DNA from: a virus
Lineage: Duplodnaviria > Heunggongvirae > Uroviricota > Caudoviricetes
DNA length: 64,000 nt
Direction: 5' to 3' (one strand)
IMG/VR virus record: IMGVR_UViG_3300032268_000658
Below are positions 13,479-50,947 of the stretch, piece after piece. The translations under genes and the position numbers were made by a program. The notes beneath the pieces were generated by a model. It was not told the DNA's origin. It made no database searches and saw only the letters and a list, made by a program, of their open reading frames with translations. Position 1 is the first letter of the stretch. Every line of letters begins with the position of its first letter.

Positions 13479-13928
13479 ATGGAAGTAATCATCACAGAAT
13501 CTAAGCTCACTAAAGTTATTTATACATACCTTACAATGTCTTTCGAAGGATTTGATAAATGTAGTTATGATTGGGCCAACTTTAATTGTGGTATGGGCGT
13601 TTGTTGTGACCCCTACGCTATAGGATTTGTTCTACCTGAAAGTGAATATGATGATTATCTATTTAAGTTAGTTAATGGTAAACTGTATGATGACGATAGT
13701 GATTATGGCGAAGACCTTAAAGGTGATTTACCTGAGCCTTGTAATTATTCACCTGATATAACTGATAGGGAGTTTGATACCATTATAATGGGTGAAGACA
13801 TATACGAAAGACTTCATGATTTATTTGGTGATATTGATATTTGGAGACAGCCTTTGGCATCCGTCATAAATAAAGTGTTTAATACGAACGCTCATACTCT
13901 GTTATACCGATACGAGACTTATAATTAA
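13479..13928 (+). CDS. Hypothetical Cys-rich protein (MEVIITESKLTKVI leader)
   Basis: ORF; IITE N-terminus. Confidence 0.5.
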   Translation: MEVIITESKLTKVIYTYLTMSFEGFDKCSYDWANFNCGMGVCCDPYAIGFVLPESEYDDYLFKLVNGKLYDDDSDYGEDLKGDLPEPCNYSPDITDREFDTIIMGEDIYERLHDLFGDIDIWRQPLASVINKVFNTNAHTLLYRYETYN

Positions 13929-13941
13929 CGTATTTATCATT

Positions 13942-14262
13942 ATGAAGTATATTATCACAGAAGACCAATATGAAAGAGTCATTAATCAGAAATCTCTTTC
14001 TTGGATTAAGAGAAGAATTAATTTGGTTAAAGAAGAATTGAAGGAGACCTTTGAACTTATGGAGTTTGATATTTGTCGAATAGATGATTATGAAAAGTTT
14101 GAACAGAAATTCTTCACTGTGTTAATGGATGGCCTTCATCCTTATTTCTATGATGACGAGAATATTGGTAATATCGAATACGATGGAATGTATGACTTAT
14201 TGAAGGATTACTTTTATGTTGATTGCACCGAGTTTTATTTTGCTGGTCGTGAGAAGTGCTAA
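13942..14262 (+). CDS. Hypothetical protein (MKYIITEDQYERVI leader)
   Basis: ORF; IITE N-terminus. Confidence 0.5.
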   Translation: MKYIITEDQYERVINQKSLSWIKRRINLVKEELKETFELMEFDICRIDDYEKFEQKFFTVLMDGLHPYFYDDENIGNIEYDGMYDLLKDYFYVDCTEFYFAGREKC

Positions 14263-14354: not shown

Positions 14355-15053
14355 ATGGTTAAAGATTTTCTTACTGTGGTAATACCCACCAAAAATGAGA
14401 GTGAACTTATTGATGTTACTCTTGGTTATTTAAACAAACAACACTATATAAACGGAACCAAAGTTATTATCTGTGATTCTTCTGACGATGATACTATTGA
14501 GATTGCTTTATCAGGTAAATACAAGAACTTAGACATCACCGTTATTGATGGTGGTCTTCCAAGTATTGCAAGGAATAATGGTGCTGCCTTATGTAATACC
14601 CCATATGTTTTATTCTTGGATGCTGATATGTTTCTTGTTGACATGAATACTCTCGATGATGTGATTAACTATATGAACGAGAGCAGAAAACATTTATTAA
14701 CTTGTAGGTTCAGATGTAGAGGTAAGTATTCATTTATCTTTCCCATCTTTGAATTCTTTAGAGATATTACCATTTGGAGTGCTCCGTGTGCCATTGGTGG
14801 ATTCATGCTCTTTGACATATTGGAATTTAATAAACTTGGTGGATTTGTTAATGAAGACAAATTTGCTGAAGACTTTCATTTGAGTATGAAAATATCTCCT
14901 GATAAGTTTCATGTATCAAAACATAAGATATATACAACAGATAGACGATTTAAAAAGAAAGGATTACTCTACATGATGAAGATGTCTTTCCTATCTTATA
15001 TCAATAAAAACAACCCCGAATTTTTTAAGAATGACCACAACTACTGGGTATAG
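14355..15053 (+). CDS. Family 2 glycosyltransferase (GT-A fold)
   Basis: VVIPTKNE..., DSSDD, ARNNGA and FLDADM match the GT2 N-terminal signature. Confidence 0.7.
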   Translation: MVKDFLTVVIPTKNESELIDVTLGYLNKQHYINGTKVIICDSSDDDTIEIALSGKYKNLDITVIDGGLPSIARNNGAALCNTPYVLFLDADMFLVDMNTLDDVINYMNESRKHLLTCRFRCRGKYSFIFPIFEFFRDITIWSAPCAIGGFMLFDILEFNKLGGFVNEDKFAEDFHLSMKISPDKFHVSKHKIYTTDRRFKKKGLLYMMKMSFLSYINKNNPEFFKNDHNYWV

Positions 15054-15786
15054 AACGGTTATAATGTCGGACCTTCATTTGGGAATGAAGGACTGCAAAC
15101 CAATCAAGATATTGGAATTTCTTGATTCTATGAGGACAGACCTTCTAATATTAAATGGTGACATCATTGACTTTGATGCCCTTAGACGCGGAAGCAAGTG
15201 GAAAAATAAACATACAAAAGTTATTACCAAGATATTGGATATATCTCGTCATGTTCCCGTGATTTATATTCGTGGGAATCATGACGATGATATTCGTGAA
15301 TTCTTTGGAATGGAAATTGGAAACATACAATTCGTAGATGAATATGTTATTGAAACTGACGAATGGATTGAAAACGATGTCTTCAAACATAGACGATTTC
15401 TTATATTTCATGGCGACCAAATTGATGCTATTACATCCAAGTTTAAGTTACTTGCTCAGATTGGTTCAATGGGTTATGACCTGGCTTTAAGACTGAATAC
15501 AATCTATAACAAATACAGAGAGTGGAGAAAACTCCCATACTATAGTATATCAAAAAAAATTAAGGAAAACTTTAAGAAGGCGTGGACCTTTATCAATAAC
15601 TTTGAGGAGAACGCTATTAAGTACGGTAAACTAAAATCATGTGATGGTGTTATATGTGGACATATCCATATCCCTGTGATGAAAGATATTCATGGATTGA
15701 AATATTATAACTCAGGTGATTGGGTTGAGAACTTTACCGCAATTGTTATTACAAAAGATTATAAGTTTGAACTTATACAAATGTAA
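15031..15786 (+). CDS. Calcineurin-like metallophosphoesterase, LpxH-like
   Basis: SDLHLG, LNGDIIDF, GNHDDD, FHGDQID, CGHIHIP and GDW follow the order of LpxH-family motifs (DLHL / GD / GNRD / HGD / GHTH). Confidence 0.55.
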   Translation: MTTTTGYRTVIMSDLHLGMKDCKPIKILEFLDSMRTDLLILNGDIIDFDALRRGSKWKNKHTKVITKILDISRHVPVIYIRGNHDDDIREFFGMEIGNIQFVDEYVIETDEWIENDVFKHRRFLIFHGDQIDAITSKFKLLAQIGSMGYDLALRLNTIYNKYREWRKLPYYSISKKIKENFKKAWTFINNFEENAIKYGKLKSCDGVICGHIHIPVMKDIHGLKYYNSGDWVENFTAIVITKDYKFELIQM

Positions 15787-15787
15787 A

Positions 15788-15814
15788 ACCCCCACCGTTG
15801 GGTGAGGTTTTAAA
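15788..15814 (+). terminator. Intrinsic terminator (plus strand)
   Basis: aacccccacc-gttg-ggtgaggtttt after the stop of the 15031..15786 gene. Confidence 0.45.
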
Positions 15815-15831
15815 TAAATAAGACTTATATA

Positions 15832-16173
15832 TTACAATAAGTTTCTAAGAATGTGTCCTAAGATTGCAGCAACTGCAATAATTGCAGGGAATTCTTTTTT
15901 GTCACCACCCATTAAAGATATGTGAAGAACCACAGCCGCACTCATGAAACAAGAAATTAAAAATACGCCATAAAGAGATGTTGCAGGGATTACAAGTAAT
16001 GCCGCGCCAAATAATTCACCTATGCCAGTTAGAACTCTATATTTTTCTAATTTCATGTAAGCAAAGTTACCTACCATTTCTTGTGTACCACGAATCTTGT
16101 CAAATGCACCTTTCGCTAAAAATAATGCCGTTAGTACAGATAGTACCCATCCAATAATTGTTAAAATACTCAT
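15832..16173 (-). CDS. DoxX-like small integral membrane protein
   Basis: 113 aa with four hydrophobic helices and the size and topology typical of DoxX. Confidence 0.5.
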   Translation of the reverse strand: MSILTIIGWVLSVLTALFLAKGAFDKIRGTQEMVGNFAYMKLEKYRVLTGIGELFGAALLVIPATSLYGVFLISCFMSAAVVLHISLMGGDKKEFPAIIAVAAILGHILRNLL

Positions 16174-16230
16174 GTTGTTGTTTTTTTTTTAATTATAACC
16201 AAAGTTTATGTGAAAGTAAAATTGAATGTG

Positions 16231-16839
16231 TTATTTCTTACTCTTAACATCACTCATTAATCTCACAGGAATAATTGTTCCCACAGGATATGTTGCTCCT
16301 ACAGGTGCTTGTGTTACAGATGTTTGACCTGGATGTGCTCTTAATGCCTTTCTCATTGGGAATGCCAATTCATTAAGTGGACCATAACATTCTGCAATGG
16401 TTACACCGTTAACTTTATTTGGTAATACCTTACAAGGCATACACCACATATTACTCATTCCACCTTCAGGTCCTCTTGAGATAACAAATGTTCTATTTAC
16501 CGTTGGTAAATTATCCCATGTTGGAGCTTGAGGAACACTATCATAATACCAAAAATAAGACCATACAGTCTTGTCGGTACCATCAGGTGTAATTGAAGGA
16601 TTAGGAACCAAGATTGTATTTGCAACTGAAGGACCATCCATTACAGGACAAGCAGCAACTCCTTCTAAAAACTTTCTACCTTCTACGGTAATTATTTTTC
16701 CTGTTGGTTTAGCCGATGATGCTCCGCAGAAAGCAAACTTTCCTACAACAATTGTTAATGCTCTTTCTTTGTTGATTTTTTGAGTGAACGCTGTTGTTGT
16801 TAAACTCAACACCGCCAACACTAATAATAATTTTTTCAT
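16231..16839 (-). CDS. Secreted protein with a Bacteroidetes-type signal peptide
   Basis: MKKLLLVLAVLSLTTTAFTQ, then a Cys-containing soluble domain. Confidence 0.55.
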   Translation of the reverse strand: MKKLLLVLAVLSLTTTAFTQKINKERALTIVVGKFAFCGASSAKPTGKIITVEGRKFLEGVAACPVMDGPSVANTILVPNPSITPDGTDKTVWSYFWYYDSVPQAPTWDNLPTVNRTFVISRGPEGGMSNMWCMPCKVLPNKVNGVTIAECYGPLNELAFPMRKALRAHPGQTSVTQAPVGATYPVGTIIPVRLMSDVKSKK

Positions 16840-16863
16840 AGTTTTGTTTTGTTATAAATAGGG

Positions 16864-17661
16864 TTATAGATTAAATTTGTTTCCTATGGATATGTTATTC
16901 ATCAACCCAAACTTTGGATTGGTATTAATGTTTCCTCTGTATGCCAATTGTATAATAAATCTCTTTGATATTTTATATCCTAATGATGTCCCAACTAATG
17001 CATTAAACGTTGGGTCAAATTCAAAACCAATCCATCTCTCAGCACCTAAAAATGTAACTGAGTTTTTACCCATATCAAAGTATGGATTTGAATAACTAAG
17101 TAATAAGTCTGGTGTTATTGTAAATTTCCCCACGTTGTATGCTCTATTGATAAAGAACATTACTGAAGGTGCCACAACATGCATTTGTGGTAATGAATCT
17201 GACTTTACAACTTTATTAAAAGATGAAGATAAATTAATACCAAATCCTTTACTCCATTTTCCTTTGTATAATTTTACATAAGTTAATGTTGTTGTCTTAC
17301 TTTTAGCCAATTCAACATAAGAGAGAAATAAATTATTGTTACCTTTAGATACAAATCCTGATAATCCCACCTGAGAACCGTCTGTTGTAAAGAAACCATT
17401 TCCACCATAAGAATAAACACCATTAAGTGATGTTCTACCTCCACCTAAAGAAATAGCTTGTAACCATCCACCAACATATGTTGGCTTCTGTAAGAACACA
17501 AAATCAGATGATGTTAAGAATGCATTTGTTTTAACCACAGAACCTTTCTGGCTTGGTGGTGGTTGTAAATTGTTTACTTGCATTTGCATTTCCCTGTTCT
17601 TTGAATCCTGAGAGAATACAATCATTGGTGAGAGTAATAAGATTAGTAATAATTTTTTCAT
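16864..17661 (-). CDS. Putative outer-membrane beta-barrel protein
   Basis: Signal peptide MKKLLLILLLSPMIVFSQ; alternating hydrophobic beta-strand pattern; C-terminal ..GNKFNL. Confidence 0.45.
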   Translation of the reverse strand: MKKLLLILLLSPMIVFSQDSKNREMQMQVNNLQPPPSQKGSVVKTNAFLTSSDFVFLQKPTYVGGWLQAISLGGGRTSLNGVYSYGGNGFFTTDGSQVGLSGFVSKGNNNLFLSYVELAKSKTTTLTYVKLYKGKWSKGFGINLSSSFNKVVKSDSLPQMHVVAPSVMFFINRAYNVGKFTITPDLLLSYSNPYFDMGKNSVTFLGAERWIGFEFDPTFNALVGTSLGYKISKRFIIQLAYRGNINTNPKFGLMNNISIGNKFNL

Positions 17662-19777: not shown

Positions 19778-20761
19778 ATGGAGAGCCGCGAAAAAACAGT
19801 TAAGTTACTTGAATCTTTTTTATCTGATAAAGAGGTTGATGGTGTTTGTGGTTATATAGTTGACCCTGATGGTGAAGGTCAAATTCAAGTTATTGTTGTC
19901 CTTGATATTGATTACATACAAGAGGCCAATACAAAACCAGGGTTTATCGCTAGAATGATTAGAGAAGGCGTAAAACAAGAAATTAAAAAATGGATTGGTA
20001 TTGATGTATATGTTGGTTCAACCGCTAAGAAGTGTGATGAAATTGAACCTTTATCAGAATCAATGTCAACACATGTTAAAAGAAGATTGATTAATGGTGA
20101 ATTATTCGACCAGTTAAACACAATTATGGATTATGAATTTAACGCCTCATCATTTAACAGTCCTTTAGAATATCTCGAAGAAATTTGTAACGCTTTAACA
20201 GAACATACTCTTGATTATATTTGGGAAAATACAAAATTAAAGGTTAGTCTTAAAGAGAAGGATGAATTGTATTTTTATTTTATTAGAAAATATGAGAAGT
20301 ATATCACTAAAAAATATCAAGACGAACGTAGTGTAGATGAATCAAAAAAGAAATATGTTGTTACAGAATCACAATATAATATTATATTAGAGTCACAAAA
20401 ACACATTAAAGTATTTCAAGAACTTATTGATAATGAGATGGTATATATTCGTAGAGTTTGCGAAAAAGGTGCTGATGATTATGAAGGAGATGTTGGTGAT
20501 GAATCATGTAATCAAATTGAAAATGTTGAAAAAGTCATAGTTACTGATGCTGATTGGGTTACAGTGATGCATAGTAATCAACCATTAGAACAAAAATACA
20601 TGAGTATAAAACTTATGGTATATTTTAGTTCAATAAGACGTGGTGATTTTGATGCGGATGACTTAACATATGATTTAGAAAGAATAATACGAAAGAAGAC
20701 ATCAATGCCAATAATAATTAATTACGAATCAACAAATACAAACACATCTTTTGAGTGGTAA
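19778..20761 (+). CDS. Hypothetical acidic protein
   Basis: ORF. Confidence 0.5.
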   Translation: MESREKTVKLLESFLSDKEVDGVCGYIVDPDGEGQIQVIVVLDIDYIQEANTKPGFIARMIREGVKQEIKKWIGIDVYVGSTAKKCDEIEPLSESMSTHVKRRLINGELFDQLNTIMDYEFNASSFNSPLEYLEEICNALTEHTLDYIWENTKLKVSLKEKDELYFYFIRKYEKYITKKYQDERSVDESKKKYVVTESQYNIILESQKHIKVFQELIDNEMVYIRRVCEKGADDYEGDVGDESCNQIENVEKVIVTDADWVTVMHSNQPLEQKYMSIKLMVYFSSIRRGDFDADDLTYDLERIIRKKTSMPIIINYESTNTNTSFEW

Positions 20762-30630: not shown

Positions 30631-30662
30631 TTCTTTATGAAAAATAGTTAAACTATTTTTTG

Positions 30663-30734
30663 TTGCGAAGGATGGATTCGAACCACCGACCTAAAGGTTA
30701 TGAGCCTTCCGAGCTACCACTGCTCTACCTCGCG
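30663..30734 (-). tRNA. tRNA-Met (anticodon CAT) with a C1xA72 mismatch (initiator-like); tRNA-Ile(LAU) cannot be excluded
   Basis: Folded by hand: acceptor CGCGAGG/CTTCGCA, D-arm GAGC-AGTGGTA-GCTC, anticodon arm GAAGG-CTCATAA-CCTTT, T-arm GGTGG-TTCGAAT-CCATC, discriminator A. Confidence 0.8.
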
Positions 30735-34796: not shown

Positions 34797-35645
34797 TTAT
34801 AAACCTAATTCCATTTGTCGATTCTTATCTATAAAGTGTTGAACTCTTTCTTTAGCCACTTTAGTATAATTCTCACTTAGTTCTATTCCTATCCATCGTC
34901 TTCCGCTAACTTCAGCTGCGACTAAACTAGTCCCACTACCTGTAAATGGGTCAAGAACAATATCATTTTTATATGTAAGAATTTTAATAGCATTCATTGG
35001 AATATCCATTGAAAAAGTGGCTTTAGTTTGTTGTTTAGTGTCCGCAAAGTATTCCCATTGACCATATACCAAACTCATAAACTCTTTCTTATCTTCTTCT
35101 TGGTATACCATCTTCTGTTTGATTGTACCATCTTCTTGTTCTAAATCAACCAACTCTCCTTTCCATTGTGGTTCACCCTTAACTTTTTTAATACGGTCTT
35201 TCTTATAAGCCAAGATTACACATTCTTTTGGATTATAGATATAAGGACTTGATGGGCTCATCCATGAACCCCAAGCAGTAGTCTTACTTCTATGTGGTGA
35301 GTTCTCGTCAAGGTCTACAAGTCCATAGAATTTAAACCCAAGATTTTTCATGATTTGATAAAACTCAGACATGAATAATATTCTTCCACCTCTATCCTGT
35401 ACGTTTACTTCATATGGAATGTTTACCGCAATTCTTCCGTCATCTTTAAGAATTCTATAAGATTCAGACAACCAATCTTTAGTAAACTGCCAATAATCCT
35501 CCATTGATTGTCTATCATTATAAGAATCATAATCAATCCCCACGTTGTATGGAGGTGATGTTACTATCAAGTCAACACATGACTCAGGAAGATTCGCCAT
35601 CACTTTAACACAATTTCCTTGGATTATTTTATTTGTTTCTAACAT
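34797..35645 (-). CDS. DNA methyltransferase, beta class, SPPY motif (N4-cytosine type likely)
   Basis: Motif IV DLIVTSPPY precedes motif I LDPFTGSGTS; SPPY is typical of N4C methyltransferases. Confidence 0.75.
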   Translation of the reverse strand: MLETNKIIQGNCVKVMANLPESCVDLIVTSPPYNVGIDYDSYNDRQSMEDYWQFTKDWLSESYRILKDDGRIAVNIPYEVNVQDRGGRILFMSEFYQIMKNLGFKFYGLVDLDENSPHRSKTTAWGSWMSPSSPYIYNPKECVILAYKKDRIKKVKGEPQWKGELVDLEQEDGTIKQKMVYQEEDKKEFMSLVYGQWEYFADTKQQTKATFSMDIPMNAIKILTYKNDIVLDPFTGSGTSLVAAEVSGRRWIGIELSENYTKVAKERVQHFIDKNRQMELGL

Positions 35646-48924: not shown

Positions 48925-49767
48925 CTAATAATTCAATATAAGTAGCTCTTCACCCATATTTTGTTTTACACCTTTTTTTGCGGCAGCAGCTTTTGCGAAT
49001 TCCTTTTTCTCCCATCTGAACGTAGTTTCAGGGTACCATGTGTGTAATAAGTCAAAATCGTAATACGATAAACTAAATTTACCCTGTACGTTATTTAATA
49101 CGTTTGCAAGTCTTTCGTGGTCTTCTCTATCAAAATCATGATTATTATAATAGTTCTCCGTCTTCCAATATGGAGGGTCCAAATAGATATAAGTCGATGG
49201 TGAATCATACTTATCAATAACCGCTTGGAAGTCTAAATTCTCAACATGACTGATTCTTAAGAAATGTTCAACCCAATCAGGTTTACTTAACTTATCTCTA
49301 AAGGTTAGATATTTTGACTTGTATTTACCTTTTAAATCAATGAATGAACTTGTTTCAGGTTTAGACCCTGAAAATACTTGTGACAATACGTAAGCATATT
49401 TAGCGGCAATAACATAATCATAAGGTTGTACCCTGAAGTCTTGAGCAAAAATTTCAGCTTGGAACCTGATAAATTGTTCTTTATATATTGCAGGTGTTAC
49501 ACTAACCCCTTGTTGTTGACAAGGTATTGCATTGACCTCATCTAACAATTGAGACGGGTTCTGTAAACATTGGAACAAGTTATAGTTTAATGGATTAAAG
49601 TCGTTATAAACGACTCTCTTTAAGTTTGGGAACTGATTTAAGTTCGTATTGAAGAAGCACCAAAACATTCCTGAGAATGGTTCAACGTATGTCTCCATGT
49701 CGTTAGGGTAGAACGGTACAATCCATTTACCAATTTTAGATTTACCTCCGATGTATGATAATGCCAT
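48925..49767 (-). CDS. Dam-family (D12 class) N6-adenine DNA methyltransferase
   Basis: N-terminal SYIGGKSK...VEPFSG and C-terminal YLDPPYW. Confidence 0.75.
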   Translation of the reverse strand: MALSYIGGKSKIGKWIVPFYPNDMETYVEPFSGMFWCFFNTNLNQFPNLKRVVYNDFNPLNYNLFQCLQNPSQLLDEVNAIPCQQQGVSVTPAIYKEQFIRFQAEIFAQDFRVQPYDYVIAAKYAYVLSQVFSGSKPETSSFIDLKGKYKSKYLTFRDKLSKPDWVEHFLRISHVENLDFQAVIDKYDSPSTYIYLDPPYWKTENYYNNHDFDREDHERLANVLNNVQGKFSLSYYDFDLLHTWYPETTFRWEKKEFAKAAAAKKGVKQNMGEELLILNY

Positions 49768-49887: not shown

Positions 49888-50031
49888 ATGTCAGAATGTA
49901 AAAAATGTAATCAAAAGCCAACATCTAAAGGCCAATACGCAACAATATTTTTTGGTGCTTATTTACTATTTGCAGCAATCTACGGCACAATCGCTTTAAT
50001 TCATGATTTGGTTGACACCTTTACTAAATAG
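49888..50031 (+). CDS. Candidate 47-aa membrane peptide MSECKKCNQK...(not in the ORF track)
   Basis: Preceded by TAATTTTG (-7 type) ~30 nt upstream; CxxC followed by one TM helix. Confidence 0.3.
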   Translation: MSECKKCNQKPTSKGQYATIFFGAYLLFAAIYGTIALIHDLVDTFTK

Positions 50032-50947
50032 GTCGTTCAAACTTAACGTTTAACTTAACATACATATCCCCGCCATTATATCCCTTACCTTTAAGTCTTA
50101 AAGGTCTTGAGGTGTCAAATAAACGTGGTGAACCCATACTTAAATCCCCATTTGGGTGTGGTATTAGGAACTTATCTTTTTGGACCTCTTCTAAATTAAG
50201 GTAAAGATTATATATTAAATCGTTATTCAATTTTTCAAACCCGTCTTTACTCACAACTTCAATTTGAATAACTAAATCCCCATAGTCTCCGTGTTTAAAA
50301 TCACCAGCATTTTCAAGTTTTAAATACTGTCCTGAATCAATACCAACAGGTAATTTTATTTTAACACTATTCGCCAAAGATTTGGTACCATTCCCTCCAC
50401 AGTTATAACACTTGTGTACCAAAGTGTATCCTTTACCACCACAGGTACTACAATTAGTTCTAATTTGTTGTACCATGAATCCAGTACCATATGTTTTTAC
50501 TTCAAACCCTTGTCCCTTACATGTCGTACATTGTTGTTGTTCCCCACCTGTTCCACTACAAATGTTACAATGGTTTTCCTTAATATAATGAATATCTTTT
50601 TCCACACCTAAGTATGATTCAATAGGAGTAATAACTACCTTCACTATTTTATCAGGGGCGTTTTTTCTTTTTTGTTGTCTGAACGGAGAACCTCCATTCC
50701 TAAACATCTGTGAGAACATATCTTCATAAGCTGTTCCTTCGAATGGATTTGATTTTGAACTATCGTATTTGGCTTTCTTTTCTGGATTACTTAGTACGTC
50801 ATATGCCTCAGCAATTCCCTTAAATTGTTCTGCTCCATCAGGATTTACATCGGGGTGATATTTCTTTGAAAGTGCTCTGTATGATTTTTTAATCTCATCT
50901 GCGGACGCTTTCTCTTCAACTTCTAAAATTTTATAGTAATCTTTCAT
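50024..50947 (-). CDS. dnaJ: DnaJ-like co-chaperone (J domain plus CxxCxGxG zinc finger)
   Basis: YYKILEV...YHPDVNP (HPD) and four CxxCxGxG repeats. Confidence 0.75.
   Translation of the reverse strand: MKDYYKILEVEEKASADEIKKSYRALSKKYHPDVNPDGAEQFKGIAEAYDVLSNPEKKAKYDSSKSNPFEGTAYEDMFSQMFRNGGSPFRQQKRKNAPDKIVKVVITPIESYLGVEKDIHYIKENHCNICSGTGGEQQQCTTCKGQGFEVKTYGTGFMVQQIRTNCSTCGGKGYTLVHKCYNCGGNGTKSLANSVKIKLPVGIDSGQYLKLENAGDFKHGDYGDLVIQIEVVSKDGFEKLNNDLIYNLYLNLEEVQKDKFLIPHPNGDLSMGSPRLFDTSRPLRLKGKGYNGGDMYVKLNVKFERPI

Follow-up and report, generated by a model that had tools for sequence, protein, structure and literature searches.

What do five consecutive genes contribute to a virus of the Caudoviricetes, and do they work together? 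The genes lie at positions 14355 to 17661 of IMG/VR record IMGVR_UViG_3300032268_000658, whose whole stretch of 64,000 nucleotides (nt) is the window analyzed here, and encode a glycosyltransferase of family 2 (GT2), a metallophosphoesterase (MPE), a small membrane protein of the DoxX type, a secreted protein of 202 amino acids (aa), and a probable outer-membrane beta-barrel of 265 aa. An initial annotation made from the letters of the sequence took them for one envelope-directed accessory module, in which an LpxH-like phosphoesterase of lipid A synthesis and its neighboring glycosyltransferase would remodel the lipopolysaccharide (LPS) of the host. All five open reading frames (ORFs) were confirmed with their coordinates unchanged (Table 1), and the GT2, Metallophos and DoxX_2 domains all score above their curated cutoffs. 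As judged from gene order and distribution, the five genes are nevertheless two convergent, evolutionarily independent units: the GT2-MPE pair on the plus strand (unit 1, 14355-15786), and the DoxX, 202-aa and 265-aa genes on the minus strand (unit 2, 15832-17661). We lean, on balance, toward the hypothesis that unit 1 is the phage counterpart of a bacterial phosphate-starvation operon, plcP and its partner glycosyltransferase gene, and works as a PlcP phospholipase plus a glycolipid synthase.

The end of the GT2 ORF and the start of the MPE ORF overlap by 23 nt, and this arrangement is widespread among viruses. IMG/VR contains over 580 stretches that code for relatives; among the 80 best of them, in which neighbors were counted, 50 carry a gene homologous to the window GT2 beside the MPE, 13 have a bacterial-type GT-B enzyme instead (downstream of the MPE in 12 and upstream in one, some beside DNA ligase or ribonucleotide reductase (RNR)), and 17 have neither. 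Of 295 neighboring ORFs, 49 are GT2 and 12 are GT4, no other kind occurring more than seven times, and nucleases and RNR are often found among the neighbors of viral MPE genes. Wherever both genes occur together (61 viral or metagenomic loci) they are on the same strand, with the GT2 immediately upstream in 58, and mostly overlap or nearly abut (gaps between high-scoring segment pairs mostly of -20 to +18 nt). Their adjacency holds from 97% down to 32% GT2 identity, and over the 61 loci the identities of the two proteins to those of the window co-vary (Spearman 0.92). We take the pair to be a translationally coupled, ancient phage cassette. The initial annotation considered its module unusual cargo for a phage, a view that is difficult to maintain given the number of IMG/VR relatives, the homologues of the MPE carried by isolate pelagiphage and cyanophage genomes, and the viromic surveys that already count viral "lpxH" (K03269) as an auxiliary metabolic gene (AMG) under LPS biosynthesis. 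At three IMG/VR loci (L165, L173 and L178) the MPE is followed by an Agt-like GT4 gene, beside genes for DNA ligase, the RNR small subunit and a non-specific endonuclease; this MPE-GT4 arrangement is of the bacterial type, and phages therefore seem to have gained PlcP cassettes more than once.

The MPE matches the Metallophos family (PF00149, E 1.1e-12), and its seven metal ligands (D14, H16, D44, N83, H127, H211 and H213) are invariant in 176 homologues. Full-length bacterial homologues are 37-45% identical to it (tblastn E 4e-67 to 3e-51, calculated over the candidate stretches alone) and were found in Bacteroidota, Verrucomicrobia, Planctomycetota, Pelagibacteraceae, and the Alpha-, Beta- and Gammaproteobacteria, among them Rhizobiales, Caulobacter, Burkholderiales, Alteromonas and Pseudomonas. 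When 69 bacterial homologues, themselves relatives of the query MPE, are made into a profile, the window protein scores 298.5 bits, its homologue in Pelagibacter phage Mosig 344.9 and that of S-SRM01 211, against 40.7 for the LpxH of Escherichia coli. In a neighbor-joining tree rooted on LpxH, the window protein belongs to an all-viral clade of 58 leaves, 51 of them with the GT2, and the first sequences to join this clade are PlcP-like sequences of Bacteroidota. The criterion for PlcP in the literature is a BLASTP E value below 1e-40 to the PlcP of Phaeobacter MED193 (EAQ46983); as a proxy, a Pelagibacteraceae homologue in a locus resembling plcP-agt-phoR-pstS is matched by tblastn at E 3e-54 (again calculated over the candidate stretches alone).

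Gene context in bacteria points the same way. Of the 80 bacterial MPE sequences in the tree, 56 have a GT-B glycosyltransferase within the 6-kb flanks of their loci, and at the loci inspected it is the next gene on the same strand, a GT4 enzyme in Proteobacteria and Verrucomicrobia and a PF13528 enzyme in Bacteroidota. Some loci also carry a diacylglycerol-kinase-like lipid kinase, a polyphosphate kinase or an OlsF-like acyltransferase. The Pelagibacteraceae locus L046 reads lipid kinase, MPE, GT4, PhoR-like kinase and, further on, a PstS-like protein, and its GT4 has weak, sub-cutoff NCBIfam matches to glycolipid synthases, among them the monoglucosyl-diacylglycerol synthase Mgs. No lipid A gene is nearby in any of the bacterial MPE loci inspected. 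PlcP itself is a phospholipase C of the metallophosphoesterase type that depends on Mn, yields diacylglycerol and is induced by phosphorus deficiency; it mostly shares an operon with a glycosyltransferase gene (agt or others), and is carried by SAR11, Flavobacteria and Verrucomicrobia (PMC4796936, PMC8528852). Trees of PlcP use LpxH as the outgroup (PMC9239053). Since the bacterial homologues show the same gene arrangement as the published plcP-agt operon, we read the MPE as PlcP-like, and propose that it is a Mn-dependent phospholipase C acting on host phospholipids.

The partner enzyme is a stand-alone glycosyltransferase with the GT-A fold (PF00535 Glycos_transf_2, E 2e-14, 54.3 bits against a cutoff of 23.3), one of a family of proteins of about 225-250 aa with 3813 database matches. 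Its catalytic motifs (P11..N14-E15, D41, the DxD motif F87-x-D89-A-D91, and E172-D173) are kept in 30 diverse homologues, and its best NCBIfam match, over the full length, is TIGR04283 at 68 bits against a cutoff of 182, an unrelated family of small GT2 enzymes. It shares no homology with the GT-B enzymes accompanying PlcP in bacteria (Agt of family GT4, and PF13528 in Bacteroidota), and looks like a non-orthologous replacement that has been fixed in phages. A single MPE family is thus found beside glycosyltransferases of three unrelated families, which is the main argument for a shared lipid intermediate; we propose that the GT2 is a diacylglycerol glycosyltransferase. During infection the PlcP-like enzyme would convert host glycerophospholipids to diacylglycerol by cleaving off their phospho-head group, and the freed phosphorus would be recycled, for example into phage nucleotides; the GT2 would then attach a sugar, donated by a nucleotide sugar, to the diacylglycerol, so that the membrane would be refilled with phosphorus-free glycolipid and stay intact until lysis.

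Compared with the PlcP-Agt operon (Sinorhizobium meliloti SMc00171, Phaeobacter MED193, SAR11 HTCC7211 PB7211_983/960, and Pseudomonas aeruginosa PA3219-PA3218), unit 1 is alike in the MPE family, as seen by profile, signature residues and context, and in setting a phospholipase C next to a glycosyltransferase gene of the same strand. It differs in being phage-borne, in having a small GT-A enzyme (GT2) upstream where the operon has a GT-B enzyme (GT4 or PF13528) downstream, in the modest identity (~37-45%) of its MPE to bacterial members, and in having no detected Pho box. A further likeness is found in phage Mosig, where the MPE homologue adjoins a divergent gene annotated as a putative phosphate ABC transporter (L005, 2894-4729), so that the phosphorus theme fits. 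Among phages, genes for phosphate acquisition are known as AMGs of cyanophages and pelagiphages (pstS, phoA and phoH). The proposed role of unit 1 resembles theirs, namely relief of the phosphorus limitation of phage DNA synthesis; however, they import or signal external phosphate, whereas the GT2-MPE cassette would mine the host membrane and replace the lipid.

Several points weigh against this reading. The weakest are the missing Pho box and the unlikeness of the GT2 to known glycolipid synthases. No CTGTCATNNNNCTGTCAT-like Pho box was found near the operon (the window has three matches at three mismatches, against 6.4 expected), although the consensus is proteobacterial and makes a weak test for a phage of Bacteroidota, and no glycolipid synthase tested shows detectable similarity to the GT2, whose relatives in the PDB are polysaccharide and teichoic-acid enzymes. 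None of the 80 MPE genes of bacteria has a GT2 homologue nearby; the single GT2 homologue examined in a bacterium (L181, on a 4.38-Mb contig) stands alone, with no PlcP beside it; and many phage MPE homologues occur without any glycosyltransferase. On the side of the MPE, membership of the PlcP family rests on uncharacterized bacterial homologues in PlcP-like gene contexts, the neighbor-joining tree is crude and without support values, and the structural model is least confident at the helical cap, the region that would bind a lipid. Lastly, lipid renovation relies mainly on aminolipids in the one flavobacterium studied (PMC4796936). As an observation apart (L181, 1665-3280 and 8001-8738), the GT2 homologue is about 5 kb from a pair of OlsB-like (Acetyltransf_5) and OlsA-like (Acyltransferase) genes, which are genes for a phosphorus-free ornithine lipid; this may be a coincidence.

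Some of these points would be accounted for if the MPE were a PlcP-type phospholipase serving only phosphorus mining or membrane weakening, with a GT2 whose acceptor is unrelated (a polyprenol-linked sugar, a cell-wall polymer, or a protein of phage or host) and which is adjacent for reasons of co-regulation. The isolate phages and the roughly 17 of 80 IMG/VR loci in which the MPE occurs without a glycosyltransferase would fit such an arrangement, as would the polysaccharide and teichoic-acid substrates of the solved GT2 relatives and the solitary bacterial homologue. We consider it unlikely, if a serious competitor, in view of an adjacency that outlasts divergence down to 32% GT2 identity, reading frames that overlap or nearly abut, and divergence that co-varies; moreover, the bacterial MPE family independently partners two other glycosyltransferase families, and there the link within one pathway is experimentally established.

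Much less probable is the interpretation offered by the initial annotation, that the MPE is an LpxH-type UDP-2,3-diacylglucosamine diphosphatase which, with the GT2, remodels lipid A, LPS or O-antigen, masking receptors or excluding superinfecting phages. LpxH is indeed close: a profile of the phage MPE family, searched against solved structures, matches LpxH as the sole family (E 1.6e-9 to 6e-4, full length), and the AF2 (AlphaFold2) model of the MPE (predicted local distance difference test score, pLDDT, 77; cap helices at 129-165 and 174-201) has LpxH as its top Foldseek match, with a TM-score of ~0.55. The calcineurin-like core, the helical cap after the HGD motif and the seven metal ligands are all shared with LpxH (PDB 5K8K, 5B49 and 5WLY), and annotators at JGI and GenBank name the homologues LpxH, that of Mosig being recorded as a putative UDP-2,3-diacylglucosamine hydrolase. 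However, the curated LpxH model TIGR01854 gives the MPE 18.9 bits against a cutoff of 190.35; LpxH is only its nearest solved relative, and a helical cap within an MPE core is common to PlcP and LpxH. The motif GNHD (His84 in the MPE) is present in 177 of 177 family members, and GNRD (Arg80) only in E. coli LpxH, from which 16 residues invariant between the MPE and its 176 bacterial and viral homologues are missing, many of them in the cap. Pseudomonas, Alteromonas and Caulobacter have an LpxH or LpxI of their own besides the separate gene of the MPE family, and, as described above, the relatives of the MPE stand in PlcP-type operons, lipid A genes being absent from the inspected loci.

The GT2 does not rescue the LPS interpretation. 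It weakly matches the PHROG "GtrB-like O-antigen conversion" and resembles GtrB-type enzymes in its GT2 fold, its DxD motif and its being phage-borne; the match, however, is confined to residues 6-125, the N-terminal nucleotide-binding half, no hydrophobic segment follows residue 156, so that the C-terminal transmembrane hairpin anchoring GtrB is absent, and no GtrA or GtrC partners accompany it. Nor does the MPE fall with the generic Icc/YfcE enzymes, the grouping that the initial annotation had named as its own refutation: TIGR00040 (YfcE) aligns with residues 8-151 only and scores 34.7 bits against a cutoff of 56.25. By its profile scores and signature residues, the MPE is a sister family of LpxH, and neither LpxH nor YfcE/Icc.

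Slightly less probable again is a single co-functioning envelope island of five genes, in which, for example, lipid remodeling would be needed for insertion of the barrel. All five genes lie side by side in the window and in its closest relatives, those with an MPE 98% identical; in L019 the two conserved pairs (GT2-MPE, and the 202-aa and 265-aa genes) lie within 4 kb of one another. Farther out the arrangement dissolves. Relatives with 79-90% MPE identity keep the GT2-MPE pair, and the genes after it differ: HNH and Pterin_4a genes in L001, two ORFs of no known family in L008, and a Y-family polymerase in L011. The two pairs part company in L001, L011 and L016 (in the last, the barrel gene is ~10 kb from the MPE), they are separated in L019 by a 316-aa ORF, a BKACE enzyme and a hexapeptide transferase, and 71 of the 80 IMG/VR loci have no barrel homologue within 5 kb of the MPE. 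The blocks are convergent, and a terminator-like hairpin between them may mark the boundary between two transcription units; a scan for sigma-70 promoters was uninformative, its matches not exceeding the shuffled expectation. Because the GT2-MPE pair, DoxX and the 202/265-aa pair differ in phylogenetic distribution, and the blocks are convergent, the genes are not a single module. The initial claim that they are directed to the envelope stands in the broad sense (membrane-lipid enzymes, a DoxX protein with four transmembrane segments, a Sec-exported protein and a probable outer-membrane barrel), and that of one unit falls. From comparison of gene orders, the region can be divided into an operon and a second pair, both conserved, with a slot for variable cargo between the MPE and the secreted-protein gene. 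This slot is occupied by DoxX in the window, by the 316-aa ORF with the BKACE and hexapeptide-repeat transferase genes in L019 (3538-5918), and by six other ORFs in L008.

Least probable of all is action of the pair on nucleotides or nucleic acid (an Icc/YfcE/SbcD-like phosphodiesterase with a glycosyltransferase that modifies DNA or nucleotide sugars), to which the weak YfcE, SbcD-type and PHROG "DNA repair exonuclease" matches and the nuclease and RNR neighbors might point, since all of these matches are sub-cutoff and cover the shared MPE core only, the ~70-residue helical cap with its own invariant residues belongs to the lipid-handling LpxH/PlcP branch, and neighbors other than the glycosyltransferase are not conserved. 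A known anti-phage defense system was also considered and rejected: PADLOC, run on the five proteins and their neighbors, returned one marginal match, of the MPE to a type II methyltransferase model (E 9.5e-4, 16.3 bits).

In unit 2, the DoxX protein (PF13564, E 4.7e-8, 33.5 bits against a cutoff of 26.3) recurs with 100% identity in the nearest relatives (L012-L014) but in none of the other related loci, a distribution that marks it as strain-specific cargo. The 202-aa and 265-aa proteins share an N-terminus of the form MKKLLL-hydrophobic-F[ST]Q and have no Pfam, NCBIfam, PHROG or PADLOC family match; their ORFs are nonetheless real genes, because they have 901 and 242 database homologues, respectively (for the 202-aa protein the top 120 are 72-98% identical, and none has a Pfam domain). 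The two genes adjoin in the window and in L012-L014, L018 and L019. Searched by tblastn against INPHARED phages, DoxX and these two proteins gave no match, and the profile of the 265-aa family gave only noise against PDB sequences. As the initial annotation had surmised, the 265-aa protein is plausibly a beta-barrel: a low-confidence model makes it a probable outer-membrane barrel of 12 strands. Such barrels include the autotransporter translocators (Hbp, NalP, EspP and BrkA) and the KdgM/NanC porins; unlike known outer-membrane proteins, the 265-aa protein has no similarity to a Pfam family of that kind, and its "passenger" consists of a conserved 15-mer and a poly-Pro linker only. A phage-encoded outer-membrane protein is known in Lom of phage lambda, an 8-stranded barrel. 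Elsewhere, a metagenomic contig of 278 kb (L016, 15390-16814, plus strand) encodes a 474-aa paralogue of the barrel protein (28% identity) with an autotransporter-like layout: a signal peptide with Gln at the cleavage site, an N-terminal domain, a low-complexity linker of ~150 residues (Ala/Ser/Pro, then Lys/Glu/Ser) and a C-terminal barrel domain. The proteins of unit 2 are most likely sent to the host envelope, where their likeliest roles are a change of the cell surface or a channel; a part for the 202/265-aa pair in receptor masking or superinfection exclusion is possible.

The host is probably a member of the Bacteroidota, because three lines of sequence evidence converge: depletion of Shine-Dalgarno motifs, three signal peptides with a characteristic cleavage site, and the position of the MPE in the tree. 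Shine-Dalgarno tetramers precede two of 79 gene starts, against a background of 8.5%, and upstream regions are A-rich; the lack of Shine-Dalgarno motifs together with A-rich upstream regions is a trait of Bacteroidota and their phages. In a heuristic scan, with cleavage sites set by eye and not by a trained predictor, three exported proteins were predicted in the window (the 202-aa, the 265-aa and a third of 138 aa), all exposing Gln after cleavage (...AFT/Q, ...VFS/Q and ...AFS/Q), in agreement with the initial annotation, which had assigned Bacteroidota-type signal peptides to the first two. Gln directly after the signal-peptidase I site is the "Q-rule" of Bacteroidetes (PMC5837995, PMC10653852).

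ORFs cover ~88% of the window and mostly lack known families. Those recognized include families typical of large phages (a portal PHROG, a sigma factor, several DNA methyltransferases, an SbcC-like protein, a T4 endoV-type Pyr_excise, Amidase_2, NUDIX, AdoMet decarboxylase, thioredoxin/glutaredoxin and the full-length DnaJ), and relatives lie on metagenomic and IMG/VR contigs reaching 278-306 kb; INPHARED phages gave no DNA-level match to the five-gene region. Host-like genes besides those in Table 1 are an APS kinase, a Pterin-4a dehydratase, an SPFH protein and a Zeta-toxin-like kinase, together with the AdoMet decarboxylase and Pyr_excise already named. A 510-aa ORFan matches a ParB-like nuclease PHROG in its residues 252-347 (phrog_17560, 3e-14; phrog_723, ParB-like, 1.4e-3), and parts of it reappear in L018 and L019. 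Several neighboring ORFans have in common the motif I-[IV]-T-E-[SD]-[QK] (MEVIITESK, MKYIITEDQY and KKYVVTESQY), near the N-terminus or at the start of a domain, and may represent a family of paralogous small domains.

Table 1. Positions of the five genes, of the hairpin between the two units and of other features in the window
Feature	Coordinates	Strand	Remarks
ORFan	13479-13928	+	shared motif
ORFan	13942-14262	+	shared motif
Stand-alone GT-A glycosyltransferase, GT2, 232 aa	14355-15053	+	PF00535
PlcP-family metallophosphoesterase (assigned from sequence) with LpxH-like helical cap insertion, 251 aa	15031-15786	+	PF00149
Hairpin, G+C-rich, then T-run (terminator-like)	15790-15807		between convergent MPE and DoxX genes; 7-bp stem, 5 GC pairs, CCTCACCCAACGGTGGGG then GTTTTACATT on minus strand (terminator scan)
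DoxX_2-family small inner-membrane protein, 113 aa	15832-16173	-	PF13564; ~4 hydrophobic (transmembrane) segments
Sec-exported protein, 202 aa	16231-16839	-	signal peptide MKKLLLVLAVLSLTTTAFT, then Q; 5 Cys; no family
Probable 12-stranded outer-membrane beta-barrel, 265 aa	16864-17661	-	signal peptide, conserved 15-mer, poly-Pro linker, barrel
ORFan, 510 aa	18004-19536	-	ParB-like nuclease match
ORFan	19778-20761	+	shared motif around residue 190
tRNA-Met (one in window)	30662-30734	-
N6/N4 DNA methylase	34797-35645	-
Dam-type methylase	48925-49767	-
DnaJ, full-length	50024-50947	-	J domain, Zn-finger, C-terminal domain
Third predicted exported protein, 138 aa	55880-56296	-	Q-rule signal peptide MKKLIALIAILTTTLTAFS, then QTDTSS...; no PADLOC match

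Beyond the window, we put forward more tentatively that large phages of freshwater and marine Bacteroidota and other Gram-negatives may carry a self-contained pathway from phospholipid to glycolipid, consisting of PlcP and a previously unrecognized small diacylglycerol glycosyltransferase of the GT2 type, and may use the host membrane as a phosphorus reserve. No phage-encoded PlcP and no phage-driven conversion of phospholipid to glycolipid were found in the full-text literature, a search outside which most subscription journals lay, so that the novelty is provisional. Phage routes around phosphorus limitation have so far been transporters and phosphatases; if our reading is true, the renovation of membrane lipids would join them. 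The viral "lpxH / LPS biosynthesis" AMG would then be mis-assigned, a recurrent annotation error for a gene that really reports phosphorus scavenging, and the GT2 would represent a new class of compact GT-A enzymes for glycolipid synthesis. A study of virocells published in 2025 records that little is known of lipid remodeling in infected cells (PMC12282109). Cells with remodeled lipids differ in grazing and digestion by ciliates (PMC9457565) and in antibiotic sensitivity (PMC8528852), and remodeling forced by a phage could thus alter the ecological fate of the cells it infects.

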